Below, piece by piece: positions 4,947 through 31,980 of a stretch of DNA of 32,000 nucleotides (its first letter is position 1; the number at the start of each line of letters is the position of its first letter). Below the pieces are notes generated by a model. It did not search any database. It saw nothing but the letters and a program-made list of their open reading frames with translations, and had not been told where the DNA came from. The stretch comes from an archaeon (GTDB lineage: Archaea; Asgardarchaeota; Thorarchaeia; Thorarchaeales; Thorarchaeaceae), in NCBI GenBank assembly GCA_024275415.1, contig JAJRZD010000058.1, positions 1-32,000 of the forward strand, given 5' to 3'. Made by a program: the position numbers and the translations under genes.

Positions 4947-5149
4947 GCAGAGTGAATCCGAGAAACAGTCATGGCAAATGGACTAGACTCCTATGTGAAG
5001 TCATTTACAAGTTCCTTAAGATGCTTGATTTTTTTCTAGTATATTCATCCACAACTTGCCATTTGAACCAGTAATGTTCAAGTTCACCTTGGTGATATGT
5101 GCTTGTTGGCAACCTCAAAAATGAAGGGCGGGCAATAGGCGGCTTGATA

Positions 5150-5731
5150 GTGGAAAGGATAATGGTTTTCATCGATGGCATGAACTTTCGCAGGGCGTGG
5201 ATATCTGTTTGTACGGAGAGGGGCATGCCAAGACGTACTCGATTCGATGTGGTCAAACTGCGAAACCTATTGTCCGCGCTATCACCAGATCGTGAAGTAG
5301 TAAGAATACACTACTACAGCTCCACAATCCCACCAAAGGACTCGAAATACTACAACAATCTGAATAGCATCGACCCACGAGGCTTCAATGGAATGCTGAA
5401 GAGGAAAGGCTACAAGTGCTTCATTCTGAAAAATCGAGTCAGACATGAAAAATGTCCTCTCTGCGGGGAGAGATTCCCCATTGTCAAGGAGAAGGGTGTT
5501 GATGTTATGATTGCACTTGATATGATGATGAAAGGGATTGAAAATGCATTCGATGTGGCTCTGCTTGTCAGCGGTGATGCTGATTTCATACCAGTTGTGA
5601 ATCTGCTCACCAAGAAAGGGAAGAAAGTGGAGGTCGCACAGTTTAGTAATGCTATCTCATGGTTCTTGAGAAAGTCAGTGAATAGAGTCTATGATCTTGA
5701 CGGACATTTCGATGGTCTTGTTCTAAAATGA
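5150..5731 (+). CDS. NYN domain (LabA/DUF88) PIN-like nuclease with a CPLCG zinc-knuckle insert
   Basis: VFIDGMNF, KEKGVDVMIALDM, LVSGDADFIPVV and GKKVEV motifs; GTG at 5150 is the likely start. Confidence 0.9.
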   Translation: MERIMVFIDGMNFRRAWISVCTERGMPRRTRFDVVKLRNLLSALSPDREVVRIHYYSSTIPPKDSKYYNNLNSIDPRGFNGMLKRKGYKCFILKNRVRHEKCPLCGERFPIVKEKGVDVMIALDMMMKGIENAFDVALLVSGDADFIPVVNLLTKKGKKVEVAQFSNAISWFLRKSVNRVYDLDGHFDGLVLK

Positions 5732-6101
5732 ATGAAAGGCGAGGCAGTCAGTCATTTCGGTAGAGAATTACGACTGCTACGAGACTTAGTCTACTGCCCG
5801 CCGCGTCGTAATGTAGTTCATGATGAATATTAATAAACATAACGGAACTTTGAAACGATTTCAGAGAATCCGCATTATGAAAGGCATTATAGATACGGTC
5901 TGCTGTGTCTTCAATGACGTACCGGATCTGTGCATAGTTGCCCCAAAGATGAAGAATGTCTAGATTTGCCTATGTCTATTGTTGCTTGATGCGCTTTACG
6001 CAGGCATCGTCATCCTCAGCCCGAGTTTCGGTCCAATCGAAAAAAGATGCAACTCCGATTCTGATTCTTAGATCTGTATGGATATCATAACGACAGCTGT
6101 G

Positions 6102-6109
6102 TATAAATA
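6102..6109 (+). promoter_or_regulatory. Archaeal TATA box of the vapBC operon
   Basis: TATAAATA about 26-33 nt upstream of the ATG at 6135. Confidence 0.55.
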
Positions 6110-6134
6110 GGGATGATATGGATATGTATCAGAG

Positions 6135-6359
6135 ATGGGACTAATGTCAAAAAACATCATGATCAGCAATGAGGTCTATTCACGACTTCGAGCTATAAAG
6201 AGAGATGATGAGTCATTCAGCGATTTGATCCGAAGACTCCTGAATTACCAGAGAACAAGTCTACTTGACCTCGCGGGAGAATGGCCATTTTCTGCAAGAG
6301 AAACCAGTGAGAAAGAAAAACAGTTAGAGGAAACCTGGCAGAAAGGGTGGCGTAAATGA
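6135..6359 (+). CDS. vapB: VapB-type antitoxin (archaeal DUF217-like)
   Basis: SKNIMISNEVYSRL...ESFSDLIRRLL; stop overlaps the PIN toxin start. Confidence 0.85.
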   Translation: MGLMSKNIMISNEVYSRLRAIKRDDESFSDLIRRLLNYQRTSLLDLAGEWPFSARETSEKEKQLEETWQKGWRK

Positions 6360-7133: not shown

Positions 7134-7322
7134 TATGCGTATGTCAGTTTTAGGTGACATACAATCATTAAAAACTATGACAATGAGGATGAATAGCAGC
7201 TCGTAAGATTCCCTTTTCAAAATCACATCTATCATTAACCCCAGCATCCCGTTATTCTCTTGCTTTAATGAATTACTTGATACCATCATAACTGACTGTG
7301 ATGCGAACAATGGCACAATTTC

Positions 7323-8060
7323 GGCTCTGTGTGAAAAGTCACCTCCCGTCGCACTCCAAGAAGTCCAGTCGTGCTATGTTGTGAAGAATGACCTTGAACA
7401 ACAACCCTCGACGCTGCTCCTTGTATCTTCTTGGACTCGACCCTCCACCAGACCTCACCTTCACCATCCCAAAAACGGTCTCCACAAGACTCCTCTTTCC
7501 ATAGCTGTGTTTCTTTTTCCACTCCCTTGGATCTCTCCGGTACTCCCTGATCAACTCCTTGTATCCTCGATAACCCCGTGACCAGGCTTCCAACCTCTTC
7601 TTCGATCCTAGAGCTGGATAGGCTCCCAGGTCATGGATGTATTGGACGTCCTTTCGGGAGATGTAGGCCTTGTCCCCGTAGACATACTGGAGGGATCGAT
7701 GAACCACTCGTTTCAGGGACTGTTGAAGGACGGAGTAGGAGGGAGGTCGCTTGAGACCGAGTCGGTCAAGGAGGAGTGGGGTGAAGCCAAGTTGAGCAAC
7801 AAAGATCCGGTAGATGAGTCCAGAGTCGGACTTGAGGCCCAGGAGGACAAAGAGAGCAGGGAGTGGAAAGTCAGGAGGTCTTCCGAAAGGAGAGGTTTTG
7901 AAAGGTATCATATTGCTAAGCTTGATAAGTCCATCGAGTAAGACCTGATAGTGACGAGACCTGGCTGTGTCGTATGATGACTGGTAGGACATGAATTATG
8001 TGATCCAGTGGGTCTGGTCACATATCCTTGTATTACTTCTTCGACTTTTCACACAGAGCC
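7323..8060 (-). mobile_element. IS5-family (IS903-like) element, 738 bp, perfect 18-bp TIRs, internally deleted
   Basis: GGCTCTGTGTGAAAAGTC at 7323-7340 and its exact reverse complement at 8043-8060; the transposase stop codon lies inside a TIR. Confidence 0.85.
7339..7992 (-). pseudogene. Truncated DDE transposase (IS5 family)
   Basis: YGDKAY and YGKRSLVETVFGMVK motifs present; 217 aa with no recognisable first catalytic Asp region. Confidence 0.75.
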
Positions 8061-9033
8061 CAATATCTCCAAAGGTTTTAATTCCTCTTTCTGCACCAAT
8101 TGCATCAGATCTTGTCGTAGTCATGAATAATGATGACAAGGTATCAGCTGCTGTGAAGCAATTCAAGAGGGAATGAAGAACATTAAGATAGTCACCTTTG
8201 GCTCAATAGATTTTATCCTATCCATATCGAGAATCATTGAGAAAACAGTTTGGGTTTCTCATGGATATGAAGATGGAATATTAACGCTTAGCACCAAAGT
8301 CAGCTAGAAGGACTTTAGTGGCTATATCGATAAGACACCTCGAAAAGACATTGTATTAGCCTGTGAATCTAACAATTTGAAGAATTACATTTCACCTCAG
8401 GATGCCATTGTTTCTGATGGATCTGTTGAAGCTCATGTCATGGGATTTACAGTTGCAGCTGTCCTTCTGGCATCATCCAAAGGGCTCGGGAATCCTGAAA
8501 CCCATGCATCTGTGAACAAAGCCTTTGATGCAATCAATGATATAGCTACTGGTGCTTCAGAACCTCTCTTTCTTGGTTTAATTCCCGCATGGTGGTTGCT
8601 TACCAAAATTGCTTTGATCAGTATTCTGACAGCATGGTGTTTTACTACTGCTGAATCACAAGTACCTGCAGCTCTTGCTGAAGCAGTACATCCAATACTC
8701 ATTATTTTCGGAATCGCATTCATCTTCAGTACATTTTCTTCACTGTTGTTGCTTCTGGTTCAAGATGCATTTCCGGGATTCTCGTCTTTCCTATCGATTG
8801 TTTCTGTATTTCTAAACTTATTAGCAGGACTGGCAATTCAAAAAATCATCCAAGGTGCATTGCATGGCGGTGCATACCTGCTTGGCTTAGCAGCTGGAAA
8901 AGCCGCTAGTTTGACTGGTGCAAGTGTTTCGTGGTCTCAACCATGGATTAGAGCAGCTTTTGCAGCATCTGCTGCAATACTCGCTGTTTCCATCATTGAC
9001 TTTATAGTGGTTACAGTCTATACACTGATGTAA
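8061..9033 (+). pseudogene. Disrupted gene: caspase/CHAT-like His-Cys domain followed by hydrophobic Ala/Gly-rich helices
   Basis: The frame from ATG 8173 reads VWVSHGYEDG...VS*KDF...IVLACES with an in-frame TAG at 8305-8307 and runs into ORF 8377..9033. An upstream piece (8061-8176) is in another frame and abuts the IS end. Confidence 0.55.
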
Positions 9034-13757: not shown

Positions 13758-14474
13758 GTGATGCCTCCCACGAGAGATATTATTGATGAGATTCTAAGGG
13801 ATAATCCTAAGCTTGACGTAAATGCGATTCATGCCCGAACGTGGGATAAAATGAAGGAGTACCGAAGCAGATATTTCAAAGAGCAAGTGGATATCTTTAT
13901 TGATTCGCTAGAGATTTCGGATGAGGCAAAGCGAATCGTCCGAAATGCACTCTTAGAGCCAGTTGTGATAGACGATGTGGAGTACGAGAGTTTCCTTGTT
14001 GGTATCGGAAGAAAGATGAGCCAAAGTATCCAACCAAGAAGTGGAAAATCAGCAGAGTACTGTGGTGAGATTGAATTACAACGACAGGGGCTAGAGCGAG
14101 GCGTACACTTTACTGTAAGAAACAAGCGTTCTGATTTGACGCTTTACCATCCGGATCTCGAATCACCCAAAGCAACTCATCGAGTTGAGGTAAAGAATAT
14201 GAAGATTAGAGAGCGTGGTGTTCGGGGTCTTTCGTTCGATGGAGATTCTCTCTTCGGTTTCTTTGATGAGCCAGGTGAATTCACAGAAGGAGAATTACAG
14301 GTGATAGAAAGGAAGTTGGGGCAAACAGGCGGGTATGTGTATTTGCCAATAGGTACGTTGAAGAGTATAGAAGCAAAAATAGATAAGGATCTCAATCACA
14401 TATTGCGCGAGAATACGAGATTTGGCCCTGATATGGCAAAGTTTGTTCAAACTGGAAGCATCCCTAGGGACTAG
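13758..14474 (+). CDS. Type II restriction endonuclease (PD-(D/E)xK; Ecl18kI/EcoRII-C-like motifs)
   Basis: RSGKSAE, SDLTL, VEVKNMKIRER; convergent with and overlapping a methyltransferase by 11 nt. Confidence 0.75.
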   Translation: MMPPTRDIIDEILRDNPKLDVNAIHARTWDKMKEYRSRYFKEQVDIFIDSLEISDEAKRIVRNALLEPVVIDDVEYESFLVGIGRKMSQSIQPRSGKSAEYCGEIELQRQGLERGVHFTVRNKRSDLTLYHPDLESPKATHRVEVKNMKIRERGVRGLSFDGDSLFGFFDEPGEFTEGELQVIERKLGQTGGYVYLPIGTLKSIEAKIDKDLNHILRENTRFGPDMAKFVQTGSIPRD

Positions 14475-15354
14475 GGGGTTTCCAAAAGTCAAGGATATAC
14501 TCGAAAGTCGTTCCTAGCGTGATATAGTTATTGGGCCACCCGAAAATTCCAGCTTTGTTCACAAGGTTTCTTCGATCCCATATGATTATATTGCGTAACT
14601 CATATCCTACTCGTTCCATGACCTCAACTGTGTAGATGTGAATAGGAATTCGCTTGTTCTCCCACCACAAGTCAGTGATGTTAATGACACAGTGTGCCTT
14701 AGGTCTAAGCAGTGGAAGGATTCCTTTGTAAATTTCGCCCAACGTTTCAGTATACGGATGTGCTTTCATAGTCCCAAGATCACGAGGGTCATCTGAATAT
14801 TGTTGAACAGTATCATAGTGTTCGTTTTTCCGGAGGTCACCTCGTATGCTCTTATTCTTCCTCGGACGATTGAGCATGTTAGAATATGGAGGCGAGGTCA
14901 CACACAACGAGATTGTTTCTTCTTCGAAATACTTTGGGATATTATGTGAATCATCACATATTGCTAATTGTTGAGAATCGCCTTCCAAGCGCGTTTGCCC
15001 AAGTCTAGAAAGTGACAGATCAACATAGTCCTGCTTGAGATCGAACCCAACCGCATTCCGATCAAGATCCTGAGCTGCGACAAGGGTCGTGCCACTTCCG
15101 ACGAAGGGATCCAGAACTAACTCTCCTTTGTGAGTGAACAATTGGATACATTTTGTAGGGAGACCTATTGGAAACACTGCCGGATGGATCTTCTTGTCGC
15201 GGATGTCGCGTTTTTCGTAGAAAAACTCCCATATCGCAACTTGACTCTTCATCCATTCCTTTGCCGTCATGCAATTAATATGATTTGATTTACAATTGCA
15301 TGTTTGTGTATGCCCGATTTTCAAAGGCTGGGTGATTTTTTGCGAGGACTGCAT
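14464..15354 (-). CDS. Amino-methyltransferase (probably N4-cytosine) with permuted motif order
   Basis: HPAVFP and DPFVGSGTT (motifs X/I) precede TSPPY (motif IV). Confidence 0.9.
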   Translation of the reverse strand: MQSSQKITQPLKIGHTQTCNCKSNHINCMTAKEWMKSQVAIWEFFYEKRDIRDKKIHPAVFPIGLPTKCIQLFTHKGELVLDPFVGSGTTLVAAQDLDRNAVGFDLKQDYVDLSLSRLGQTRLEGDSQQLAICDDSHNIPKYFEEETISLCVTSPPYSNMLNRPRKNKSIRGDLRKNEHYDTVQQYSDDPRDLGTMKAHPYTETLGEIYKGILPLLRPKAHCVINITDLWWENKRIPIHIYTVEVMERVGYELRNIIIWDRRNLVNKAGIFGWPNNYITLGTTFEYILDFWKPPSP

Positions 15355-15405
15355 TTTACTCGACCATGAAATCGAATAAAGCTATTAAAGCTCTTCCTAA
15401 AAGAT

Positions 15406-15537
15406 GGCTCTGTGTGAAAAGTCAGCTGGAGGGTTCTGTTTGAAATCAGCATGGATGATTGCGTGTCAAAATTCCAACACCTCACTCCTTACCACCATCG
15501 ATCTTATGATGTCCGGTCGGACTTTTCACACAACTCC
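15406..15537. mobile_element. 132-bp MITE, copy 1
   Basis: Left end is identical to the IS TIR; right end is GACTTTTCACACAACTCC; about 85% identical to 21102..21233 by manual alignment. Confidence 0.85.
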
Positions 15538-16402: not shown

Positions 16403-17107
16403 ATGACTGCAAAGAAACGTATTGTGTATATTGCGACTGTTGGGAGTAGTATTGAACCAGTTCAAAAGGGAATTCTCTATGCATCGCCTGATATCGCATA
16501 TCTTCTATTTGGGGCAAGTCCAAAGCTTAAAGAGAGAAATCCAGAGCTTGTCGCACGGAAGGTTAAGGAGAACATAAAACCATTGGGGCTAACAAAATGT
16601 CATCTCCGAGAGATTGATGCTTTCTCCTTAGAGAGTGTTATGACCGAGGTTATCAAAATCTGGCAGAAACACATGAAGGACAGAATCATCGCCAATATGA
16701 CAGGGGGAACTAACATTATGGCTTCTGCCTGTCTTCTTGCAGGTTTCACTGCATCCGCAGATGTGATCTATGTGAAGGAAGTGCAGGAAGGAGAAGATAT
16801 TCCACTTCGTGAGCAAGTCATCGTTCTTCCAACTCCGAGAATCCCTCTCACTAGCTTGACTGACGAACAACAGGAGATACTCCGACTACTCCTGAATGAA
16901 ACTGAGGCTGGCACAACTCTTCTCGCAAGGGCAAATAGCAGAATTGCAGACCATATGAAAGTAACGCCTCAGACAATTTCGCACCACCTTAAACGCATGG
17001 AACAGAAGGCATTGATACGCCGGGAGAAGGAAGGTAGGCACCTGAATGTAGAACTAACCCCATCAGGGCTTCTATTTGCAAGAATGCTTGAAAAAACAAA
17101 AGAGTGA
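16403..17107 (+). CDS. csa3: Csa3-like CARF-winged-HTH transcriptional regulator
   Basis: N-terminal CARF (YIATVGSSIEP, IIANMTGGTNIMA, DVIYV) and C-terminal wHTH (IADHMKVTPQTISHHLKRME..LI...GR...ELTPSG). Confidence 0.8.
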   Translation: MTAKKRIVYIATVGSSIEPVQKGILYASPDIAYLLFGASPKLKERNPELVARKVKENIKPLGLTKCHLREIDAFSLESVMTEVIKIWQKHMKDRIIANMTGGTNIMASACLLAGFTASADVIYVKEVQEGEDIPLREQVIVLPTPRIPLTSLTDEQQEILRLLLNETEAGTTLLARANSRIADHMKVTPQTISHHLKRMEQKALIRREKEGRHLNVELTPSGLLFARMLEKTKE

Positions 17108-17183: not shown

Positions 17184-17400
17184 ATGATTCCCAGAACCAA
17201 GTGGATAGATGATACGCCCTCCCAGAACTCGGATCTTTCAGTTAGAAGTGTTAACTGGCACGTTTGGCCACACTGCAACTATTCTTGTAAATTCTGCTTT
17301 GTATCGACCACCTCGCATACAAATGCCTTGAAATACGGATGTGGAGAAATTGTAGGAAGGCTGTCAAGATGGTAACCGAACGCATTCAACTTCGGTCGGG
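17184..17400 (+). pseudogene. Viperin-like radical SAM remnant
   Basis: SVNWHVWPHCNYSCKFCF matches the viperin SVNxH..CNYxCxFCF signature; 17368-17396 reads DG/TERI/NFG across two 1-nt shifts. Confidence 0.65.
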
Positions 17401-17784: not shown

Positions 17785-18759
17785 ATGGTATCGCGGGGGT
17801 ATGAATTGAGAGCGTTTTCGTCTTCGGGCTTCAAACCATTGGAAATTGTAAGTGATGGCGACCTTGATGGAATTTTTGCGGTAGGCATTCTGTTAAGGTA
17901 TTTTGATAGCGTTGGTATTTCGATACCATCTCGATTTCCCGCACCTAGAGAGCTACACAATCTCACTGTGGAAGATTCGATTCTTGTCGAGCTCGGTCCA
18001 ACAAAGGGACTACGGTTCAGAGGACATAATATGTTGATTGACCATCATGAGGGTTTCTCTGGGATTTACATGTTCAATGGCCCCGATATGGAAAGTCCAA
18101 TAGCAGAATTCGATGGTATAATGTCGGTGGTAGAAATCGTAGTGGCATATCTGAACAACGAAATCTTGATCGACTCTAGTATGCAAGAGTTAATCGACAT
18201 TGTGGGTGAGATTGACAATGGTGTATACAATCATCCAAAGGCTCGTGCTCTGCACCATGCATACATGCTAAACGTGACATCGAAAGAGATGAGGCAGAAA
18301 CTCCCAGAATGGGTACGAACTAATCAAGTGGACGTAATCTGGAAGTGGGTTGAGGTCGAATCGAAACGATGGGAACAAGTCCAGACGGTATCAGCAGCAT
18401 TGATTGATTCTGTATCAGAGGTGTCCTCAGATATCGGATTCATTTTAGTCGATTTAGATGATAATATCCAACAGATGGCTGCACGCGAGGCTATGCTTCA
18501 ACTAGAGGAACAATATAGAATCGTAATAACACTACTAGGAACCCATAACAAAGAATGGATGATCTCCCGAGGCGGCATCGGTTCAAAGAGTCATTCCGTT
18601 GACTTCACATCATTATATGACCTTCTCAGAGAGAAAGGACTGACCGCGGGTGGACGACCAACAATTGGAGGGTTTCAGTTTCTAGAGCCATATCCACTGG
18701 CCAATGTTCTCGTTCTGCTACGTAATGTTCTTGCGAGGGTTAGTGATGACAGAAAATAA
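17785..18759 (+). CDS. DHH/DHHA1-family phosphoesterase
   Basis: SDGDLDG (DxDG), LVELG, LIDHH, GEID and C-terminal AGGRPTIGG (variant of GGH..A.G). Confidence 0.85.
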   Translation: MVSRGYELRAFSSSGFKPLEIVSDGDLDGIFAVGILLRYFDSVGISIPSRFPAPRELHNLTVEDSILVELGPTKGLRFRGHNMLIDHHEGFSGIYMFNGPDMESPIAEFDGIMSVVEIVVAYLNNEILIDSSMQELIDIVGEIDNGVYNHPKARALHHAYMLNVTSKEMRQKLPEWVRTNQVDVIWKWVEVESKRWEQVQTVSAALIDSVSEVSSDIGFILVDLDDNIQQMAAREAMLQLEEQYRIVITLLGTHNKEWMISRGGIGSKSHSVDFTSLYDLLREKGLTAGGRPTIGGFQFLEPYPLANVLVLLRNVLARVSDDRK

Positions 18760-19873
18760 CAAATTAAAAGTGCATAGAGAAAAATCGTTCAAATTAGCGA
18801 ATCTTGATATTGCAGCATCGATGTACGAGTATATAGAAATCGACGAAGTGGAGTTAGAATGGGTAGACAAGTTTCTTACTATGAGGGCTTATGAGGACAA
18901 GCCGTCCAAGAAAACAAAAGCAGATTTTGATAAACACTGGATCGTAGGGAAACTTCTAATTAAGATGCCTTACTCGTTGACTTGTAGAAGTTCTGATGAT
19001 GTGCAGATGAAAAAAAATGAAGATAGTAACTCATTAGATTTAGAAATACGTTTGAGAGATGTGATTCCGGAGGTTAATCTACTTCTAAACCAAATAATTG
19101 CGATTGTCTATGATGGTTCTCGTGACAAAATTCTACGCGAGATTCAAAGCAGTGTGAATATAGCTATTGAAGAGATGCTGTCAACAATGAAAACAGGGCA
19201 AATAAGTCCCTTTCTGTGCTCACTAAGTCTGTTCAAGTCAAAAATAGATTGGCTAAGAAGGACGGATGCAAAGGATTTCAAACCTCAGCACTCGGTATCA
19301 AATGATTGCAAGCAGCTTCGTGTTAGTTTAAGTTCACAAGATTCCGTTAGTCAATTGCTGGGATATTTCGATAACACAGCTAAATACAATTTGTATGTCT
19401 TTACTGTTGGAACGTTTGATCCTATTCTGTTAGAAAGATACAGTAAATTCCTGGATGGGTTAATTTCTGATGGAACAAAGTACATGTTGTTTGTTGGCAC
19501 TGAGTATTCAGGGAAGGAACTGGATAAGATATCTAACAACATTAGAAACCAAGAAATTAAAATAAAAAAAATCACAATCTATTCTTCAAAGGATAAAGCA
19601 TCACCTAACGGAACTGACCGGATATCTAAGGAAATTGAGGGAATGGACAGAATTGATAAAGCGGCAGTCATAATCTCTGCATTTCCAAAGAAACTCATAA
19701 AACCTTTACTTCAGGACTGCAAGCAATTGCTCAAATGTGGGGTAGGATCGGTGGATATCGTATCCACCGCTACAATACCGCTCCCAGCTCCAATTGAAGA
19801 TGATGATGGTTCTCCAACTAGAAAGCCTCGCATAATAGGATTCATTATGGGGCAAATCGAGGATTTCGTATAA
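18746..19873 (+). CDS. Uncharacterised protein with a putative divergent C-terminal CARF-like domain
   Basis: The ATG at 18746 overlaps the DHH stop region; the C-terminal 160 aa show a beta-alpha pattern YVFTVGTFDP..YMLFVGTE..AVIISAFPKKL..VDIV. Confidence 0.6.
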   Translation: MTENNKLKVHREKSFKLANLDIAASMYEYIEIDEVELEWVDKFLTMRAYEDKPSKKTKADFDKHWIVGKLLIKMPYSLTCRSSDDVQMKKNEDSNSLDLEIRLRDVIPEVNLLLNQIIAIVYDGSRDKILREIQSSVNIAIEEMLSTMKTGQISPFLCSLSLFKSKIDWLRRTDAKDFKPQHSVSNDCKQLRVSLSSQDSVSQLLGYFDNTAKYNLYVFTVGTFDPILLERYSKFLDGLISDGTKYMLFVGTEYSGKELDKISNNIRNQEIKIKKITIYSSKDKASPNGTDRISKEIEGMDRIDKAAVIISAFPKKLIKPLLQDCKQLLKCGVGSVDIVSTATIPLPAPIEDDDGSPTRKPRIIGFIMGQIEDFV

Positions 19874-19893
19874 GATGAATAGGAGGATAACAA

Positions 19894-21090
19894 ATGGAGA
19901 TAGGATATTTTGTAAAACTTGATGACAATTCCAGAAAGTATTTCTACAAATACCTCGATGCTCTAAGCTTTTTCTCTCTCTCTGTCGACGAGTCCGCTTT
20001 GAGGAATGTTAGTCTTATCGGAATCACATCTTCTCTAGACAATTGTAGATGTCACAGAAATCTTACTTTCTATTTATCTAAAGGCCACACCAGCAAACAA
20101 ATGAAATCTCTAAGGTTACTTTTAGAAGGGCTGAAATATGCTTCTGCCAATCCATTGATTCCATTTGACGCCGATTGCACATTGGTAACTTCAGATAACG
20201 CCGTAAATCCCCAACTAGAACGGTTCCATAATGTGTACTCGGCCCATATGAAGGCACCAAAAGCTAACTGTTGTAATGTGCTCTCCATTCTACCATGGTT
20301 ACTACATCATGATCGCACAGGGCATTGGCTTAGGAAAAAAATCGCTCAGGATTTACTCAAACTCCACCAATTGAGTCTTGCGAATTATTTTGGAGCACCA
20401 TGCACTAGTATGACTGATGTCATGTCAGGGATAGAGTCGGTCATGTTCGGAGCATACGAGCGCAAGCTACGACCACCATCATCACAGGGGCATACAACAG
20501 GATTCGACAAATTCATTGAGAAGCACAAAATCCAAGATATAAGAGAGTTTATCGAGAAGCTTGAAGAAATCGATTTGGGAAAATGCAAAAATCTCTTTGA
20601 AAAAATATGCAATATTGATGAGTCCATTCTAACAACAACTTTTGGAAGACTTGCAAGACAAGGCCAGGATGAGATGCTGAACTATTCGGATTATAAAAGT
20701 CACGGTCTTGATGAAATAGAAAGAACAGATAATGATTGCATCCTTTTTATGACTGAACAGACAGGCCTTTTTGATGTCTTACTTGCGATGAAGAAATATG
20801 GGAAGCTATACATAATGTACTCGCCTCTAGTCATAGTGCATAGATTTCTTACTGAAGCGATTCGTTCAACAATTTCAGGGTCTAGCTCGATGGGGTGTGA
20901 AGTGAGTCATCATTTCTATCCTGCATATACACCACAAGTGGTTGAAGCCTTGATAAAAAACATTCGAAAATGCAAAAACAATCAGCTTGATATTATCGTC
21001 GGAGGATCTGAGGGTGTATACCTTGTATTAATGAAAATGAAGAATCAACAACCTGAAAGAATCAAGTTGATGACATCGATTAAAGAGTAA
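19894..21090 (+). CDS. Uncharacterised protein with a putative divergent C-terminal CARF-like domain
   Basis: AGGAGG ribosome-binding site at 19881; C-terminus ILFMTEQ..KLYIMYS..YTPQVVEALIKNI..LDIIVGGSEGVYLVL. Confidence 0.6.
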   Translation: MEIGYFVKLDDNSRKYFYKYLDALSFFSLSVDESALRNVSLIGITSSLDNCRCHRNLTFYLSKGHTSKQMKSLRLLLEGLKYASANPLIPFDADCTLVTSDNAVNPQLERFHNVYSAHMKAPKANCCNVLSILPWLLHHDRTGHWLRKKIAQDLLKLHQLSLANYFGAPCTSMTDVMSGIESVMFGAYERKLRPPSSQGHTTGFDKFIEKHKIQDIREFIEKLEEIDLGKCKNLFEKICNIDESILTTTFGRLARQGQDEMLNYSDYKSHGLDEIERTDNDCILFMTEQTGLFDVLLAMKKYGKLYIMYSPLVIVHRFLTEAIRSTISGSSSMGCEVSHHFYPAYTPQVVEALIKNIRKCKNNQLDIIVGGSEGVYLVLMKMKNQQPERIKLMTSIKE

Positions 21091-21101
21091 TGCCCAGCAT
21101 T

Positions 21102-21233
21102 GGAGCTGTGTGAAAAGACAGCTGGAGGTTTCTGTTTGAAATTAGCATGAATGATTGCGTGTCAGAGTTCCAACACCTCGATCCTTATCACCATTGATTT
21201 TATGACGGCCGATGGGACTTTTCACACAGAACC
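21102..21233. mobile_element. 132-bp MITE, copy 2, with a perfect 9-bp target-site duplication
   Basis: CCCAGCATT at 21093-21101 and 21234-21242; 18-bp imperfect TIRs. Confidence 0.9.
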
Positions 21234-21861: not shown

Positions 21862-23301
21862 GTGGGGGTGTGGATTATCCCATTTCTGGTTGCAATAAAA
21901 GCATTAAAGATTCAAGATTTGATTCATAGTTCTTCAAGACTGAAAGAAGTCGCAGGTGGAAGCCACCTTTTGGGCATGTATTGTGAAGTGGTTTCAGAAA
22001 GAATCGCAAAACACATCACCCAAGGGGATAGAAACAAGTATGATTTCAAGCGTAACAAGGGGGGTGTCGTAATTGCCACCTTTGACGATGAAGAGCATGC
22101 CAACGAGTTTATTCGTTTTATGAGAGAATGTTATCGGAGGTTATTTGGTCGTCGAGTCATAAGTTCAACTGCGCCGATCGAAATCAACAGCGACACATCT
22201 AGAGATCTAGAGGAATTGGAAAATGATATCATTCGTTCACGATATGCAGGATTTCCGCCTAGCTCGCACATTCAAAATCCTTATGTCAAAATCTGCTGGT
22301 CGTGTGGTGAAAGACCCGCGGAAATAGAAGATCCTGACTCTTTATCCTCCAACATGACATCAACACATCGTCACGTTTGTGCCCCATGTGGATTGCGATT
22401 TCGGATTTTTAAGGATTACAAGGAGATTATGGAACGCAAACTAAGCGGGCCGTTCAACAAAATTCCTTCTGGAGTTGATGATATTGCAAAACATGGCCCG
22501 AATGGCTATGTTGCATACATGCTGAGTGACGGGAATAGCTTTGGATCCTTTGTACGTGAAATAAAGGATATGAATAGTTACACGGCATTCAACAATGCCC
22601 TTCCGAAAACAGTTTCAGATAGTCTATTCTCGGTTCTTGACGAATTTGATTCAACCAATACTGACATCACTGCTCCCATGCTTCCCCTTATGACAGGGGG
22701 CGATGATTTGCTAATTCTTCTTCCCGCAAAATGGGGGATAAGCATGGCATTTGACTTTGTTAGTAGATTCGAAGAAAAAGCCAAGAAACTTATAGACTGC
22801 TCTAACAGTAAACAAATGCTTACTATGTCAGCAGGCGTCGTCATATGCAAGCAAACCCTCTCACATAAAATCGTTTATACAGTCGGAGAGAGTGTCATAA
22901 AAAGGGCAAAGCAGACCTCGAAGGAGCACGGAGTCTGTTCTTCCGTGGCATTTCAAATTCTCGCGGGTTCTAAACGAGGTTCCGAAACATCTTACAATAG
23001 ATTGATGCCTGGAGGTGTCTGTGGTGGTTTCAAAAAAACAGAACTAGAGAACGTCCTTGCATATCGCAAGCGGTTAGAGAAATTGCCTTCTGGATTGAGA
23101 AGAAGATTGAAACATCACCTCTTTTCGGATTCCGCACATGCGGAAACTGAGAGAGAGAGGATATTAGAACTTATTTCTGAACGAGATGATTCTATGGCTG
23201 AAGAGGTCAAAAAACTGCTGAAGGACGAAAAGCAAATCCTTTTTGCAATGCTTGAAGGGTGGGATTACTTGGAGAGTCATAAGGGGGCGATCATAAAATG
23301 A
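21862..23301 (+). CDS. cas10: Cas10, type III-D, lacking the HD domain; intact Palm2 GGDD
   Basis: KIQDLI..RLKEVAGGSHLL (Palm1), CWSC...CAPC zinc finger, SDGNSFG, MTGGDDL, MSAGVVI; 479 aa. Confidence 0.93.
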   Translation: MGVWIIPFLVAIKALKIQDLIHSSSRLKEVAGGSHLLGMYCEVVSERIAKHITQGDRNKYDFKRNKGGVVIATFDDEEHANEFIRFMRECYRRLFGRRVISSTAPIEINSDTSRDLEELENDIIRSRYAGFPPSSHIQNPYVKICWSCGERPAEIEDPDSLSSNMTSTHRHVCAPCGLRFRIFKDYKEIMERKLSGPFNKIPSGVDDIAKHGPNGYVAYMLSDGNSFGSFVREIKDMNSYTAFNNALPKTVSDSLFSVLDEFDSTNTDITAPMLPLMTGGDDLLILLPAKWGISMAFDFVSRFEEKAKKLIDCSNSKQMLTMSAGVVICKQTLSHKIVYTVGESVIKRAKQTSKEHGVCSSVAFQILAGSKRGSETSYNRLMPGGVCGGFKKTELENVLAYRKRLEKLPSGLRRRLKHHLFSDSAHAETERERILELISERDDSMAEEVKKLLKDEKQILFAMLEGWDYLESHKGAIIK

Positions 23302-25415
23302 AATTGCATTTCACTCTCAGGTTCTTATCGGACTTTCATCTTGGTTCTGGGAAAGGGTCGTCAGAGGTAGATGGATTGCTTGTGCGTGAATCTGATGATG
23401 CAGATGCACAGTTAACAATCAAAGGAACAACTATTGTGGGTGTGTTGCGGCAGTCACTCTATGATTTGATACAATTGAATCCTTTTAGCAACGAAAGAAA
23501 ATGCAAGCGTTCAGGGAAAAGTAACGGGAGTGAATTTTGTACAGGATCTAAAGAAGAACAGTGTCCTATATGTCGTATTCTTGGGACACCAAAACAAGTA
23601 AAGCCATGGTTCTTTTCTTCTGGACGACTGTCAGACGATGTGTCAACACAGACAATCACTCGTTCGTCAATAGATAGAGAAACCAGGACAAGTAAAGAAG
23701 GAAAATTATTCACATATGAGGTGGGTTCGAAAGAAACAAGTTTCCAGTTCGTTGTGGAACATGATGTTTCTTCATCAGATGTTTTGTGGGATGCTGCATA
23801 TATTGTTGCAGGCTTTCGATTCATAAGGTCATTGGGATCTAGTAGGAGAAGAGGAAAAGGTAGATGCATCATCAACCTAACTAAGGTACAACCCGACATA
23901 GAGGGAGAGAATCCTCAATCATTCTTCTTGGAATTGTTTAATCAAGTATATACTGGTGGCAATAATGTTGAAAAGCCTGAAGAGCTTGATAAAGCAAAAA
24001 TAGCAGCCAATGCAGCTGAGTATATAGTAGAAGTTCGGACAGAAGAACCAGTCCTCATAACTCAGAATAGAGGTTCTGGCAATCTGTATTCAGGACTTGA
24101 CTTCATTCCAGGATCTACTCTCAGAGGAGCATTGGCATGGAAGGCGATTCGTGGAGGCATTCTTGCCTCTGAAGAAGGAGAAGAGATTTTCAAAACCATG
24201 TTCACCGAAGGGAAACTTCGAGTCGGAAATTGTTATCCAGCAGGACATGATGACAAAGCAGCAATACCCACCCCGATGAATCTTCGATTCTGCGAGTTCT
24301 ATCCAAACCAACACGATATTTCAAGAAACATGAAACACCCAATGAAATGTGAATCGTGCAGAAAAGAGAATCGAGAGGCAAAAATGGACAAGAGCAAACA
24401 CTTTCTCGATTCAAACATGATGCTCGTCAGGAATAACTCAACCCACGACATGCATATCGAAATTGATCCTGAGGAAGGTACTGTAAGAGAAGGTGTATTA
24501 TATGGATATGAAGGTATCTCGATGAAATCTAGATTTCTCGGAGCCATCAATGTAGAACCCGAGATTCTCTCCAAATTCTTAGGATATTTCTATGATGATG
24601 TTAAACAAGAATCAGAGAAGATAGCAATACAATTGCAGATTGGAAAGGCAACTAGGAGAGGCTATGGAAAATCAATTGTTACTCTAACACCGAAATCGAA
24701 TGTGTTGTATGTGTATACATGGGACTCGATTGAGAATAGAGTAAATACGATTAACAAAACATTCACGCTGACATTCATATCTGACGCGATACTGATAGAC
24801 AAATATGGCCGCTATCTTAATCAAATCAATAAAGATTATTTGTATGGGCTTTTGGGATATGAAACCGAAATTGTTGGGCAAGTTATTAGAACCAAGTACG
24901 TCGAGCAATTTGATATGCGAAGCGGACTCCCCCGGTGGCGCAACAGTGCAATCATTGCAGGTTCCGTAGTAGAATTCAGGCTTAAAAATACAACTGATGT
25001 CGACGTGAAGGGGCTTCAAGATAAACTTAAGGAAATCGAGTCCAACGGAGTAGGCATAAAAACAGTGGAAGGATTTGGAGTCGTCTGCTTTAATCATCCT
25101 GCTCAAATCCTAGTCTGTTTACAAAATCGTCAAGCAACACAGGATGCGGAAAGACAAAAAGAAAAGGAACTTGAAACTGTTAGGGATGTTAGAGAACCTG
25201 ATAAGAAAAGCAAGGAAAAACTTGTAGCCATTGCTAGATTATTATACACAGGGGAGGGAGAAGTGGACAAGCTGGAGAAGATACAGAAATCGCTTAAACA
25301 GGATGATGAATTAAGAATTCACCTCAGAAGAATCATCAATGAAATCAAGAAATACAAGCAGGAGGGCAAAAAGATTAGCGATATCGCGGAACGAATCTAT
25401 GAGGGAGGGATCTAG
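23298..25415 (+). CDS. csx10: Cas7-Cas5 (Csx10) fusion with a C-terminal helical, putative Cas11 region
   Basis: FHLGSG..VDG, IKGTTIVGVLR, LGSSRRRGKG (Cas7); FIPGSTLRGAL, GKATRRGYG, GIKTVEGFG (Cas5/Csx10); charged helical last 100 aa or so. Confidence 0.85.
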   Translation: MKLHFTLRFLSDFHLGSGKGSSEVDGLLVRESDDADAQLTIKGTTIVGVLRQSLYDLIQLNPFSNERKCKRSGKSNGSEFCTGSKEEQCPICRILGTPKQVKPWFFSSGRLSDDVSTQTITRSSIDRETRTSKEGKLFTYEVGSKETSFQFVVEHDVSSSDVLWDAAYIVAGFRFIRSLGSSRRRGKGRCIINLTKVQPDIEGENPQSFFLELFNQVYTGGNNVEKPEELDKAKIAANAAEYIVEVRTEEPVLITQNRGSGNLYSGLDFIPGSTLRGALAWKAIRGGILASEEGEEIFKTMFTEGKLRVGNCYPAGHDDKAAIPTPMNLRFCEFYPNQHDISRNMKHPMKCESCRKENREAKMDKSKHFLDSNMMLVRNNSTHDMHIEIDPEEGTVREGVLYGYEGISMKSRFLGAINVEPEILSKFLGYFYDDVKQESEKIAIQLQIGKATRRGYGKSIVTLTPKSNVLYVYTWDSIENRVNTINKTFTLTFISDAILIDKYGRYLNQINKDYLYGLLGYETEIVGQVIRTKYVEQFDMRSGLPRWRNSAIIAGSVVEFRLKNTTDVDVKGLQDKLKEIESNGVGIKTVEGFGVVCFNHPAQILVCLQNRQATQDAERQKEKELETVRDVREPDKKSKEKLVAIARLLYTGEGEVDKLEKIQKSLKQDDELRIHLRRIINEIKKYKQEGKKISDIAERIYEGGI

Positions 25416-25418
25416 ACC

Positions 25419-27089
25419 ATGATAGGATTGGTAATTCGAGGGAAACTGAAACTTTTGACAAATCTGCACATCGGTTCCGGCATTTCGAATGACTACACCG
25501 ATTTACCTGTTATTCGCGATTCCGAAGGTATGGTCTTCATCCCAGGTACGTCGATTGCTGGAGCATTGCGAAGTGGTCTAGAAAAACTGCAGGAAATGAT
25601 AGATATTGACCACATTGAAGAACCACTTTGCGACTGTCCGGCTTGCACCCTCTTTGGGTCATTTCCATCTACCGAGTATGAAAGGGATTTGTCGCCAACT
25701 CTGACCGCATCAAAGATTTGGGTGTATGACTCGTACGTTTCCTCAGCTGCAAGTAAGGACAGATCGATTTCATCTATTCGCGATCATGTCGGTATAAGCA
25801 GAGTTAATTCAACGGCAGCCTATCACGCCAAGTATAATGAGGAGTCCGTGGTTGCAGGAACTGAGTTTGATTTCTGTATCGCGATAGAATCTGATGCGGA
25901 ACACCTTCACATGCTTGCGGCAGTCCTGAATGAATGGAAGTCAGGACGGGGCGCTCTAGGAGGTGGCCGGTCAAAAGGCTTTGGGAGAGTCAAGCTTGAT
26001 AACATCAAGGTTTTCAAAATCAATCTTTCATCCATTGATAAAGTTATAGCCTATTTACAATGCGATGATATACTGACAGCGGTGAGTTCTTTGTTTCTCT
26101 CTGAGGAGCCTAATTGGCTGCAGGATGAACTAGATAGAAGTAAGGATTGCTTTGCCACAGACAAATCAAGGAGAGTGTATACCGAAATCGACCTAAAATT
26201 GACTGTCGATGGAGGAGTGGTTGTGAGTGACATCGTTTCAGAGGTTATTGAAGATACGGATATCGCACCTATCAAACAATGTGACAAGTATATTATTCCC
26301 GGATCTTCATTGCGAGGCGCTTTCCGAGCCCAAGCTGAACGGGTTGCTAGAACAGTTGTGACGATGGATACAACAGACCGTGGTGATTACTTGAAGAAGT
26401 GTCCCGCATGCCATCCCTTCAATCTTCCCAGTTCGAAAAAGGGCAGTTGTGAATCGGGTTACAGGGTCAAGATAGAGGAAGGACAAATAGTTGACATAAA
26501 AAGTGAGGTATGTCTTGCTTGCCGCTTCTTTGGGATGACTCATCTTGGTAGTAGGATATCCATCTCAGATGGGATTGTAGAAAAACATCTGGAGCCAGAC
26601 CGATTCAATTTTGTAGCAATCGACCGATTTACCGGTGGAAGCCTAGATAAAGCGCTGTTTAATGCAAAAGTTCTAATGTATCCAAAATTCAAAACGAAAA
26701 TAATCATAGAAAATCCAGCAGATTGGGAGTTGGGATGGCTCTATCTTGTCATTCGTGACATTCAAGATGGGTTTGTGTCCATTGGTTGGGGAAAGAGCAA
26801 ATGGTTTGGTCGACTAGGTTTAGAGAGTATTAACGTAAGAGAACTTTGGACAATTGAAAAGTCAGTACAAGAGAAAACGGATGTAGAAGGTGTATTTGTT
26901 ATAAAGAACAGGTTTTCTTCATTCGATAATCTGTGGAAAGAAGCAGCTAAATCGTATTGCAGTGAATTTCTAAAAACATTGAGTGCTCATGAATGGGGAC
27001 TGCAAAATGGTGAGGACTCGTACTTCAAGGAAGTAAATGATACATTATCACTTTCGGATATCTATCCTAGGGAGGGATTACAAAAATGA
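25419..27089 (+). CDS. cas7: Cas7-Cas7 tandem RAMP (Csm3-like x2)
   Basis: Two RAMP repeats: LHIGSG..TD..IPGTSIAGALR..LGGGRSKGFG and IPGSSLRGAFR..IDRFTGG..IGWGKSKWFG. Confidence 0.9.
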   Translation: MIGLVIRGKLKLLTNLHIGSGISNDYTDLPVIRDSEGMVFIPGTSIAGALRSGLEKLQEMIDIDHIEEPLCDCPACTLFGSFPSTEYERDLSPTLTASKIWVYDSYVSSAASKDRSISSIRDHVGISRVNSTAAYHAKYNEESVVAGTEFDFCIAIESDAEHLHMLAAVLNEWKSGRGALGGGRSKGFGRVKLDNIKVFKINLSSIDKVIAYLQCDDILTAVSSLFLSEEPNWLQDELDRSKDCFATDKSRRVYTEIDLKLTVDGGVVVSDIVSEVIEDTDIAPIKQCDKYIIPGSSLRGAFRAQAERVARTVVTMDTTDRGDYLKKCPACHPFNLPSSKKGSCESGYRVKIEEGQIVDIKSEVCLACRFFGMTHLGSRISISDGIVEKHLEPDRFNFVAIDRFTGGSLDKALFNAKVLMYPKFKTKIIIENPADWELGWLYLVIRDIQDGFVSIGWGKSKWFGRLGLESINVRELWTIEKSVQEKTDVEGVFVIKNRFSSFDNLWKEAAKSYCSEFLKTLSAHEWGLQNGEDSYFKEVNDTLSLSDIYPREGLQK

Positions 27090-27631
27090 ATGACGAAGTG
27101 GCAGACATTATCGATGAGTTGCTGGCTGATTCTCAGGTCAGTGAGGATATTGTAGTATACCATGGAGTGACACAAGAGCCAAAAGATATCATCAAAGAAT
27201 TCTTTCCCAGTAACAGTGGACTCTGTATCTGCGAGGGGCTCAATGGTATCCGTTTCGAAAAACAACAGGATTTTTCGTCGGATGACATGATGATCAGATT
27301 GAAGGTGTTCGATGAAGATGGAGACCTTGAAATCTGGCGGATAGATGAGAATTTTGGTTGGAGATTTATTGGTAAACCGAAAGGCAATCAAAAACACGAA
27401 CAACTCGAGTTGGATAAAGACCATTGGTTCGTAAGAGAGATAAAGGTCAATCTCTGGGGGTCTGAATCCCGTGATGGTCAGAGGTTCGAGTCCAGAATGG
27501 CAGCTGCAAATCTAAGATATCCCATTGATGATACATCAAAACCGGTGAATCTAAGGATACGAGAATACTCAAGAAAGGGTACACTTCAATTCGTAAGATA
27601 TGTCAGTCTAGAAACGGAGGGGGATAAATGA
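27086..27631 (+). CDS. csx19: Csx19
   Basis: RLKVFDEDGDLEIWR, LWG, LRYP, IREY..FVRY pattern; canonical position between the Cas7 genes. Confidence 0.85.
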   Translation: MNDEVADIIDELLADSQVSEDIVVYHGVTQEPKDIIKEFFPSNSGLCICEGLNGIRFEKQQDFSSDDMMIRLKVFDEDGDLEIWRIDENFGWRFIGKPKGNQKHEQLELDKDHWFVREIKVNLWGSESRDGQRFESRMAAANLRYPIDDTSKPVNLRIREYSRKGTLQFVRYVSLETEGDK

Positions 27632-29622
27632 ATTCCATTTTCAAATTTTATAATCCATACAATTTTGTTAGACCTATTAGAAAGAGGGATTCATCATCTA
27701 TCGATAAGGATTCGATTCTGATGGATAGATGCCCACCACCGCCCCATGATCGGTACATCAGCTATACAGGTCGAATTCAGTGCAGGCTTGAAGTGAAAAC
27801 ACCATTACTTATTGGTATGTATAAGGATTCTGACATGCCAAATAATAGTGCAAGAAGAATCGAATTCTTCAAGATGAAGAGATCAGATGGCAAGCTCACA
27901 CCGACAATTCCTTCCTCATCTCTCCGAGGAGTGATCAGGTCAGTATTCGAGGCAGCTACGAACTCATGCTTTGCCATCTTCGATGACTCAAGACTATTCA
28001 AGAGGATGAAGCCGGAAAAAAGCTTGGAGTTCATCCCAGCTAGACTAGAAAGGAACGGAAATAGTTGGATTGCCAGATTGTTCAGGGGGCCCAGAACAAA
28101 AACTGACGATGATCACCTTCAATATGCAGCGTGGATTAAAGCGTACAAAGATGAGGCGACACACCAAAGAGCTGATAGATATCAAAAAAGGCCAAAAATA
28201 AGAGAACTAAAAGATTTCAAGCATGGCGAAAAATGTTATGCGATAATAGAGAATAAAGAATACTCTCGAGGACGATTTTGTTTTCATAACGTGATATCTT
28301 TGCACAATACTCAACCCGAAAAGGTTGATAATGATCAGTATTGTGTAGAAGGGTATGTTTACAATAAAGGCAAGAATATTAGACGTAAGCATGACGAACG
28401 ATTCTTTTTCCCTGCAGATAGTAAGGAAATATGTGAAATATCTGAAGGAGTAATTGCAGACTACAAGAAGCTTCTTGATGAACGTGAGAACAAAGAAAAG
28501 CTGTTTAATGGTAGCTTGGTATGGGTGAAACCGAGCGAGAATGAAAAAGAAGTAGATGCAATTATCCCCGTTGCAATATCCAAGATTCGTTATCACAAGT
28601 CCAGAGGTGACCTTCTTGCGCAGTATGACCTTTTGAATTGCACAGACATCTCTAAACTATGTCCAGCTTGTCGGGTTTTCGGATGGGTACCTGTAACAGA
28701 TCAACAAACAGATTTGCGAGATTCTGGATTCAAGGGGAGAGTTGGTTTCAATCATGCATTTCTAAAAGATCAGAAGCATTTGAAGAAAGAGGAATTGATA
28801 CTTACCTTAGCGAGTCCTAAGCCTACAGCGAAGTCGTTCTATTTGTTAGATGATGAAACACCTTCAGGTCAAGTGGATTACGATTCACATAGTGCATCAA
28901 TTCGTGGTAGGAAATTCTTCCTTCATCACAAGAGATTCACATTCCCGCAAGGAAAAAGTAAACCTAACGAAAAAACCGATACAATCATCACGGAATTCGT
29001 TGGCTACAAAGCTGATTTTGATTTCGTAGTTGAGTTCGAAAATCTAGCTGCTGTTGAACTCGGTGCTTTGGTTTGGGCGCTCACACTTGAAGAGGGAATG
29101 TATCACCGACTTGGTATGGCGAAAGCTTATGGATTTGGTAGTGTAAGGATATCCATCAAGGAGGATGGTCTTATACTATATGACATGCGGAGTAGATACA
29201 CTAGCTCCAAAAAAGTGCTGAACCAACCTGCCGATTCGAGATCATTCATTCAGTCGTTCAAGAAGGCTATGAAGAAACTATATGGTGAATTTGATGAGCT
29301 GGGTAATATCAAGGATTTGAAATCTATCCTATCAGGTCCAGATGATGATATTCCCATTCATTATCCGAGATGTAAGAGGGAATACTCGGATGACAATAAG
29401 GGCTATGAATGGTTTATGGCTGCAAAGAAACACAAGGGAGTATTATCAAAAGCAGTCCCTTTGAAACCGCTTGATTCTAAACCGTGTCGAGAAGAACAGA
29501 ATAAAAAATCACAAAATAAAACAAAGAGAGGGGCACGAACACGTGGACATAAATCCAAAGACAAGCAAAAGGGTGGAACTAGAAAAAAGAAGGGCCGACA
29601 TTCATGGCAGACTCGGAGATAG
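27628..29622 (+). CDS. cas7: Cas7 with a large insertion (terminal type III-D RAMP)
   Basis: FYNPYNFV, IPSSSLRGVIRS, LCPACRVFG, LASPKPT, RGRKFF, LGMAKAYGFG. Confidence 0.9.
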   Translation: MNSIFKFYNPYNFVRPIRKRDSSSIDKDSILMDRCPPPPHDRYISYTGRIQCRLEVKTPLLIGMYKDSDMPNNSARRIEFFKMKRSDGKLTPTIPSSSLRGVIRSVFEAATNSCFAIFDDSRLFKRMKPEKSLEFIPARLERNGNSWIARLFRGPRTKTDDDHLQYAAWIKAYKDEATHQRADRYQKRPKIRELKDFKHGEKCYAIIENKEYSRGRFCFHNVISLHNTQPEKVDNDQYCVEGYVYNKGKNIRRKHDERFFFPADSKEICEISEGVIADYKKLLDERENKEKLFNGSLVWVKPSENEKEVDAIIPVAISKIRYHKSRGDLLAQYDLLNCTDISKLCPACRVFGWVPVTDQQTDLRDSGFKGRVGFNHAFLKDQKHLKKEELILTLASPKPTAKSFYLLDDETPSGQVDYDSHSASIRGRKFFLHHKRFTFPQGKSKPNEKTDTIITEFVGYKADFDFVVEFENLAAVELGALVWALTLEEGMYHRLGMAKAYGFGSVRISIKEDGLILYDMRSRYTSSKKVLNQPADSRSFIQSFKKAMKKLYGEFDELGNIKDLKSILSGPDDDIPIHYPRCKREYSDDNKGYEWFMAAKKHKGVLSKAVPLKPLDSKPCREEQNKKSQNKTKRGARTRGHKSKDKQKGGTRKKKGRHSWQTRR

Positions 29623-31518: not shown

Positions 31519-31980
31519 ATGGCAGATGGTGGGGATACCATGCAGAAAACTAGGTTGGTCTTAGACACATCAGTGTTCATGTTGGGAGGGTCGAATTTCA
31601 CATTCCGCCAGATAGAATCCAAGCTTGCAGAGAACACTCATGTCTTCGTATTTCTTACATGTGTGCGAAAGGAGTTGACGAAAAAAGCTGATGAGGGGTC
31701 TTCTGATGCCGTTGCGGGTCTGAAGCGTCTTGAAAGAATAACAAGACTATATACAGGTGCTACCGAAGTGCTCTACGTCCAGCAGACCTATGCGGACGAC
31801 CCGATATATGGATATCTTGCAAGGTGTACTGAAGCTACAGAATTCATAAGCAGAGATAGAGAACTCAAGCAGCGAGTCTATGACCTTAGAAATCCGCATG
31901 TCAGAGTATTCGACATTACTAGAAACGGGAAAATCCTCGAATTCGACCCTGATTGGAGACCTTATAGTAGATTCACGTAG
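31519..31980 (+). CDS. PIN-domain protein (Fcf1/Utp23/VapC9-like)
   Basis: LVLDTSVF, CVRKEL, ADDPI, FISRDRELKQRV. Confidence 0.8.
   Translation: MADGGDTMQKTRLVLDTSVFMLGGSNFTFRQIESKLAENTHVFVFLTCVRKELTKKADEGSSDAVAGLKRLERITRLYTGATEVLYVQQTYADDPIYGYLARCTEATEFISRDRELKQRVYDLRNPHVRVFDITRNGKILEFDPDWRPYSRFT

Follow-up and report, generated by a model that had tools for sequence, protein, structure and literature searches.

Second messengers of type III CRISPR are read mainly by CARF proteins, and with each new CARF output domain another way to stop infection has come to light. The window analysed here, a 32,000-nucleotide stretch of DNA from a Thorarchaeia archaeon, contains a gene whose product, protein B, had been read in a first-pass annotation of the bare sequence as CARF-like, with a Cys/His-rich N-terminus that might form a second Rossmann lobe. 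This raises the questions of whether B belongs to the CARF superfamily, with which partners it would act, and what kind of messenger it might read.

Gene B is conserved and rare

The open reading frame (ORF) at 19894-21090 is a real, conserved gene. Its setting in the window is as follows:

16403-17107, + strand: Csa3-like regulator combining CARF and winged-helix domains (PADLOC CARF3, 1e-36; NCBIfam Csa3; Pfam HFX_2341_N)
17785-18759, + strand: DHH-like phosphoesterase gene, first in the cassette, with conserved SDGDxDG, DHH and GGR motifs
18746-19873, + strand: protein A gene, the upstream partner of B, identified by alignment and by HMM matches in all four cassettes
19881-19887, + strand: AGGAGGA, a ribosome-binding-like (Shine-Dalgarno-like) sequence 7 nt 5' of the B ATG and 8 nt past the protein A stop
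19894-21090, + strand: protein B gene, 398 aa, with a family-specific N-terminal part and a C-terminal domain predicted to have a CARF fold (ORF, orthologue and AlphaFold2)
21862-29622, + strand: III-Dv-like effector operon with cas10d, a Cas7-Csx10 fusion, a double Cas7, csx19 and a Cas7 with an insertion

A HMMER search of all 1.84 billion representative proteins gave 7 hits, one of which, a 1419-aa protein (P0005), was rejected as spurious because it is a repetitive surface protein. In all, about seven relatives of B were recovered, without exception from Asgard archaea or metagenomes. The nearest, from a Thorarchaeota MAG, is 43% identical. Word-index protein searches with B alignments recovered the known members again, together with one 441-aa protein. 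A 218-aa fragment (P0009) shares at least 90% identity with the Thorarchaeota orthologue and carries an Altiarchaeales MAG label, which suggests either misbinning or recent transfer.

At the genome level, the B gene was found in 4 of the 87 genomes of the class Thorarchaeia. Matches occurred in 8 of 400 genomes of the phylum, half of these eight being weaker matches from other Asgard families. The alignment spans the helical and C-terminal parts of the protein in three of the weaker matches (G377, G087 and G166); in G382, the remaining one, a separate ORF upstream carries the helical part. The B-like gene of G382 (L020 4823-6156, - strand) is made up of two overlapping ORFs, 5635-6156 and 4823-5644, which may reflect a frameshift or a true split of the gene. 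Upstream of it are a DHH-like gene (7284-8258) and a 264-aa partner gene that is related to the partner in G377.

Protein B matched no family in Pfam, NCBIfam or PADLOC, and thus no curated CARF sequence model at a significant level; in the same searches, the Csa3-like neighbour does match CARF sequence models. Pfam searches with all seven family members at E-values up to 10 gave nothing consistent and no CARF family, and a PDB profile search with the family alignment gave a single chance match with an E-value of 2.5. Neither whole protein B nor residues 1-272 retrieved a usable match from the ESM Atlas.

B belongs to a three-gene cassette found at type III loci

The DHH-like gene, A and B occur in the same order in all four Thorarchaeia genomes that carry B (4 of 87 in the class). 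The profile of the DHH-like protein matched the DHH-family PAP phosphatase 8a8k with an E-value of 0.0023. All four genomes show tight coupling between A and B, and in two of them the A stop overlaps the B start by 4 nt. In the wider family, too, a partner gene always precedes the B-type gene in tight coupling, and in three loci (L006, L007 and L019) the two overlap by 4 nt.

The four cassettes differ in their surroundings. In the window and in one further genome (G008), the cassette lies directly upstream of a III-Dv-like cas10d operon; the Cas10d of the window retains GGDD and has no HD domain. In G003, the cassette is located inside a III-B locus, between cmr1 and a Csa3-like gene with a Cmr2-Cmr3-Cmr4 operon. 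The cassette therefore occurs at both III-Dv and III-B loci and is independent of any single subtype. In G013, its neighbours are genes for ABC transporters and surface proteins; the contig, 17 kb long, bears no cas gene, but two cas10 genes are present elsewhere in that genome. All four cassette-bearing Thorarchaeia genomes have cas10.

Full-length but distant B-like genes adjoin Cas10 operons in G377 and G087, which belong to two further Asgard families, and in both an upstream partner gene overlaps the B-like gene. The B-like gene of G382 lies with a partner and a DHH-like gene (hhalign probability 100) beside kinase-like defence genes on a short contig without a cas gene. In total, five of seven contexts place a B-family gene no more than a few kb from cas10, so that the family shows the association with cas10-bearing type III loci that is expected of the CARF superfamily. 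A pattern scan of the genome contigs and two scans of metagenome contigs found nothing.

The partners in the distant Asgard loci have no detectable likeness to A. Comparison of the A and B profiles by hhalign detected no homology, and a paralogous origin of the two proteins was rejected at an hhalign probability of 0.1.

Several other features of these loci were recorded. Two direct copies of a 128-nt repeat, 87% identical to each other, lie at 15405-15532 and 21101-21228 and bracket the block that runs from a PAS gene through the Csa3-like gene, the DHH-like gene, A and B; the second copy begins 11 nt past the B stop codon. Between the Csa3-like and DHH-like genes, at 17184-17375, there is a 63-aa ORF with the sequence CNYSCKFCF (CxxxCxxC, radical-SAM type) and no Pfam match, which may be a remnant of a longer gene. 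An N6/N4 DNA methylase gene (Pfam 1e-27; 14464-15354, - strand) is located upstream of the module, and a weakly PIN_9-like ORF (31519-31980, + strand) downstream of the effector operon. In G087 (L019 1826-4736, - strand), a gene for a HerA-like ATPase (489 aa) is preceded by an overlapping 483-aa gene of unknown type, and the distance from these two genes to the B-like pair and the Cas10 operon is about 5 kb. A 549-aa protein of unknown type is encoded at L007 11066-12715 (- strand) in the III-B locus of G003, where its gene separates the cassette from the Csa3-like gene; it weakly matches a winged helix of the CasR/Csa3 type (E about 1e-5).

The C-terminal domain is predicted to adopt a CARF fold

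The structure of B was predicted with AlphaFold2 from the seven-sequence alignment (mean pLDDT 79.4, pTM 0.84). The model divides into three parts, residues 1-130, 131-272 and 279-398, which together with the two motif regions map to the DNA as follows:

19894-20283, + strand: residues 1-130, alpha/beta lobe with the element order b-a-b-b-a-b (DSSP on the models)
20284-20709, + strand: residues 131-272, helical bundle (models and conservation)
20728-21087, + strand: residues 279-398, predicted CARF-fold domain (AlphaFold2 and structure searches)
20749-20763, + strand: residues 286-290 (MTEQT), the loop after strand 1 and the place of CARF motif I, with E288 and Q289 invariant
20986-21030, + strand: residues 365-379, LDIIVGGSEGVYLVL, at the place of CARF motif II, running from strand 4 through the GG loop into the first part of helix 4

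In the model, the C-terminal domain consists of b1 (281-285), a1 (292-301), b2 (304-309), a2 (311-327), b3 (336-341), a3 (347-359), b4 (365-368), a4 (373-385) and b5 (390-393). When the model was compared with 48,161 PDB chains by VIA-align, the top 13 rows for residues 272-398 were all CARF proteins, with Z scores from 11.5 to 8.6, rmsd values of 2.6-3.3 A and 109-118 residues aligned. Among them were Csm6 8jbc (11.5), Can2 7bdv (11.4), Cdn1 8z4i (11.0), Card1 6wxw (10.8), Can2 8bao (10.5), Csm6' 8pcw (10.4), Can1 6sce (9.1), Cam1 8t64 (9.0) and the ring nuclease Sso2081 (8.7). Generic Rossmann-type folds first appeared at Z 8.7, and the resulting lead of about 3 Z units, obtained with a model that has only seven sequences behind it, is not decisive. 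Independently, Foldseek matched the B model to Cam1, Cdn1 and Csm6, each at probability 1.00. Foldseek matches to eIF2B-like proteins were discarded, since at TM scores of 0.22-0.25 and rmsd values of 12-15 A they reflect nothing beyond the shared order of a helical part followed by a Rossmann part.

Residues 279-398 are thus predicted to adopt a CARF fold, with a Rossmann-like core that is, in the predicted structure, closest to known CARF domains. The first-pass annotation had staked its CARF call on a CARF-like fold in at least one half of the protein, and structure prediction places one in this half.

The pattern of conservation was examined next to the fold. The CARF part is the best conserved region of the B family, with a mean pairwise identity of 31%, compared with 22% and 26% in the other two parts. 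Its invariant residues are E288, Q289, D294, Y309, P311, L312, R317, L319, P347, G371 and L377, and most of them lie at or just past the C-terminal ends of strands 1-4. In Rossmann-like folds, the C-terminal strand ends form the ligand face. CARF motifs consist of small or polar residues after strand 1 and a Gly-rich stretch after strand 4, usually followed by Thr/Ser and Lys/Arg. In B, strand 4 is followed by G370-G371-(S/G/N), where G371 is invariant and G370 is present in six of the seven members, and the motif contains no Lys or Arg. A GG motif that echoes the CARF motif without its usual Lys had been proposed from about nt 20737. The motif is present, is more than a chance likeness given its conservation, and occupies the place of CARF motif II, in the loop between strand 4 and helix 4, with no basic residue; its position is nt 20986-21030. 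Because nt 20737 corresponds to residue 282 in strand 1 of the C-terminal domain, that coordinate marks the start of the domain rather than the motif.

We also considered that the C-terminal domain could be a generic Rossmann-like nucleotide-binding fold with no relation to CRISPR signalling, and the DHH-A-B cassette a separate nucleotide-metabolism or defence module residing in defence islands. Domains of SDRs, NADPH oxidase and malonyl-CoA reductase match the same residues at Z 7.3-8.7, B has no sequence match to CARF models, and two of the cassette contexts have no cas gene nearby. However, all 13 of the best structural matches are CARF proteins and outscore every generic fold, the loop past strand 1 carries TEQ rather than a Gly-rich dinucleotide-binding sequence, and the proximity to cas10 in five of seven contexts argues against a separate module. 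We regard this explanation as highly improbable. Membership of B in the CARF superfamily is supported by the predicted fold, the position of the motifs and the genomic context, and by no sequence model.

The N-terminal 270 residues are predicted to form a lobe and a helical bundle that match no solved fold

The N-terminal lobe is built, in the model, from E2-8, H11-25, E39-48, E53-61, H67-85 and E94-99. The strings from which a second lobe and metal-binding clusters had been proposed (LIGITSS, LTFYLS, CTLVTS, CRCH at residues 51-54, CC at 126-127 and HHD at 138-140) are all present in the ORF. The lobe is indeed predicted to be alpha/beta, but its b-a-b-b-a-b order, and the lack of any match to a CARF or Rossmann fold, lend no support to a second Rossmann or CARF lobe of the kind found in Can1. 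When the N-terminal part (residues 1-275) was modelled separately (pLDDT 78.6), Foldseek found no match in the PDB at an E-value of 0.001 or better and none in BFVD, and VIA searches gave no CARF or Rossmann row.

Cys and His make up 2.8% and 3.5% of B, mildly above the neighbouring genes, and few of these residues are shared with the 43%-identical orthologue. Across the seven family members, none of the 11 Cys and 14 His residues (25 positions) is conserved. Metal binding by CRCH, CC or HHD is therefore unsupported, and the clusters are a feature of one sequence alone.

Conservation in the lobe is limited to an invariant N86, P87 in six of the seven members and a basic residue at position 55 in all of them. 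The VIA search gave weak matches of the lobe to nuclease domains, namely EcoT38I (Z 5.2), Card1 6xl1 residues 272-373 (Z 4.4), EndoMS (Z 3.9), VC1899 (Z 3.6) and Cap4 (Z 3.5), and gelsolin scored about as high. A PD-(D/E)xK nuclease core has the order a-b-b-b-a-b with a conserved Asp and a conserved (Asp/Glu)-x-Lys. A check of residues 1-130 of B for this family yielded weak fold matches (Z 3.5-5.2), and no acidic residue is conserved there across the seven members.

These matches bear on the possibility of a receptor that is a heterodimer of A and B and the split equivalent of Can1. In it, two unlike CARF domains would build one ligand pocket, with A as the active nuclease-like subunit and the B lobe as a catalytically dead nuclease-like regulator or scaffold. 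In favour of it, residues 1-124 weakly resemble nuclease domains (Z 3.5-5.2) yet have no conserved Asp or Glu, and the genes for A and B invariably stand side by side with coupled translation. Against this, all matches of the lobe are in the noise range (Z < 5.3) with gelsolin scoring equally, the A and B profiles share no homology, and the upstream partner in the distant Asgard loci is not detectably A-like. We therefore consider a split receptor of this kind unlikely.

The helical bundle is the second part of the N-terminal module. P134, R141, G143, Q152, L157, T201 and F250-G251-R252 are invariant in it, and residues 256-271 form a low-confidence, disordered linker in the model. Its best VIA match reached Z 6.8, and the top rows were all generic helical bundles. 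Small respiratory-complex subunits were among the matches; a membrane-protein reading was dismissed because the helices of the window's protein are charged.

Over the N-terminal 270 residues as a whole, the conserved polar positions are N86, the basic position 55, R141, Q152, T201 and R252. Since the invariant polar and basic residues are concentrated in the helical part, we asked whether B could be a self-contained effector, in which a ligand-bound homodimer switches on a new catalytic or nucleic-acid site in the bundle (R141, Q152, T201 and R252), for example that of a metal-independent HEPN-like RNase. CARF-HEPN is the commonest design of CARF effectors, as in Csm6 and Csx1, and the HEPN toxin 8xdj aligned with residues 140-251 at Z 5.4. 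HEPN domains are four-helix bundles with a conserved catalytic Rx4-6H motif. No conserved His follows R141 or R252 in B, however, and His144 is shared with the closest orthologue alone. In addition, 8xdj ranked 19th among generic helical bundles, and the domain order of B is opposite to that of Csm6 and Csx1. A self-contained effector of this type is, in our judgement, quite unlikely. Fold searches with the predicted front part of B gave no clear match to a solved structure and no clue to its function.

Discussion

Our results suggest that B serves as the CARF-type sensor in an ancillary module of type III CRISPR that is confined to Asgard archaea, a reading to which we give a probability of roughly 0.55. 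B is probably a divergent CARF effector or sensor and, as such, a new variant of CRISPR helper protein. Its membership in the Can1-like tandem CARF, HEPN or PD-(D/E)xK families is not established.

B shares features with several known systems and differs from each of them. Can2 and Card1 (7bdv, 6wxw, 8bao, 8q3y, 1xmx) match the B CARF domain at Z 11.4-8.7 over 110-115 residues and are likewise type III ancillary genes, and the nuclease domains of Card1 and VC1899 weakly resemble the N-terminal lobe (Z 4.4 and 3.6). Whereas Can2 and Card1 consist of a CARF domain followed by PD-(D/E)xK, B reverses this order, with the CARF domain at the C-terminus and a 140-residue helical bundle inserted; its lobe is without conserved catalytic acids, and there is no sequence similarity. 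The best CARF match to B was found in the Csm6/Csx1 group (8jbc, 5fsh, 8pcw, 6tug; Z 11.5), whose members, like B, combine a CARF domain with a helical domain. The CARF domain of Csm6 is N-terminal and that of B is C-terminal, B does not have Rx4-6H, and the likeness to HEPN is at noise level (Z 5.4).

Cam1 (8t64-8t66) shares the C-terminal position of the CARF domain, and its Foldseek matches to B had target-normalised TM scores of 0.44-0.53. Cam1 has transmembrane helices, in contrast to the N-terminal part of B, which is predicted to be a soluble alpha/beta-plus-helical module with charged helices and no membrane pore. Can1 (6sce), with a CARF match at Z 9.1, carries tandem CARF domains together with nuclease-like and nuclease domains in one chain, whereas B has one detectable CARF domain (279-398). 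The principle of Can1, in which two unlike CARF units act as one receptor, could nevertheless apply to A and B.

How might a sensor subunit of this kind work? CARF domains build their pocket for cyclic oligoadenylate as homodimers or pseudo-dimers. The C-terminal 120 residues of B would most likely dimerise and bind the nucleotide messenger that Cas10 would make once the CRISPR complex meets its target RNA. Binding of the ligand would then be relayed to the family-specific N-terminal 270 residues, that is, to the lobe without catalytic acids and to the bundle with the invariant Arg141, Gln152, Thr201 and Phe-Gly-Arg252, and B would act jointly with the translationally coupled protein A. The DHH-like phosphoesterase would probably remove the messenger or its breakdown products. 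For B, then, we infer ligand binding, dimerisation, an output activity and a partnership with A.

To our knowledge, all characterised CARF domains bind cyclic oligoadenylates (cOA), and we know of no CARF domain that binds SAM-AMP. By analogy, the ligand of B would be cOA; it could also be a SAM-AMP-type messenger. SAM-AMP and SAM-AMP2 have recently been shown to be products of III-D2 complexes, and the known SAM-AMP erasers are NrN enzymes of the DHH type (PMC13294483). The CorA/NrN SAM-AMP modules of III-B and III-D2 systems encode a DHH-family phosphoesterase beside the sensor/effector and have a III-D-type effector with fused Cas7 subunits, both as in the window (PMC13294483). Unlike these modules, the window has no CorA, and its putative sensors are proteins with a predicted CARF fold. 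The Cas10d of the window (21862-23301) seemingly has Lys13 at the position that the Palm1 Asp (ID..IQxFI) occupies in Cas10 of G377 and G087, an observation that is tentative given a weak alignment and that bears on which messenger is made.

A bolder version of the two-subunit idea would join these points: A and B would form an Asgard-specific heterodimeric CARF receptor, analogous to a split Can1, that detects an unconventional product of Cas10, such as a linear messenger or one of the SAM-AMP type, with the DHH-like enzyme as its eraser. We think this very unlikely. If it were true, A and B would set two precedents, a heteromeric CARF receptor and a CARF protein that senses something other than a cyclic oligoadenylate.

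Returning to B as a CARF-type sensor subunit, the family is tiny and its function putative, and the finding is therefore a lead rather than a discovery. The B family would add to the CARF proteins a CARF-fold sensor that every sequence model has missed, with a reversed domain order and a structurally unmatched N-terminal module. Its genes are a constant part of a three-gene cassette that also encodes a DHH-like phosphoesterase, and this cassette moves from III-Dv to III-B loci and back among Asgard archaea. The question of what III-Dv systems use as a messenger has become sharper since SAM-AMP and SAM-AMP2 were found in III-D2 (PMC13294483), and B may offer a testable entry to what the compact archaeal III-Dv systems signal with.
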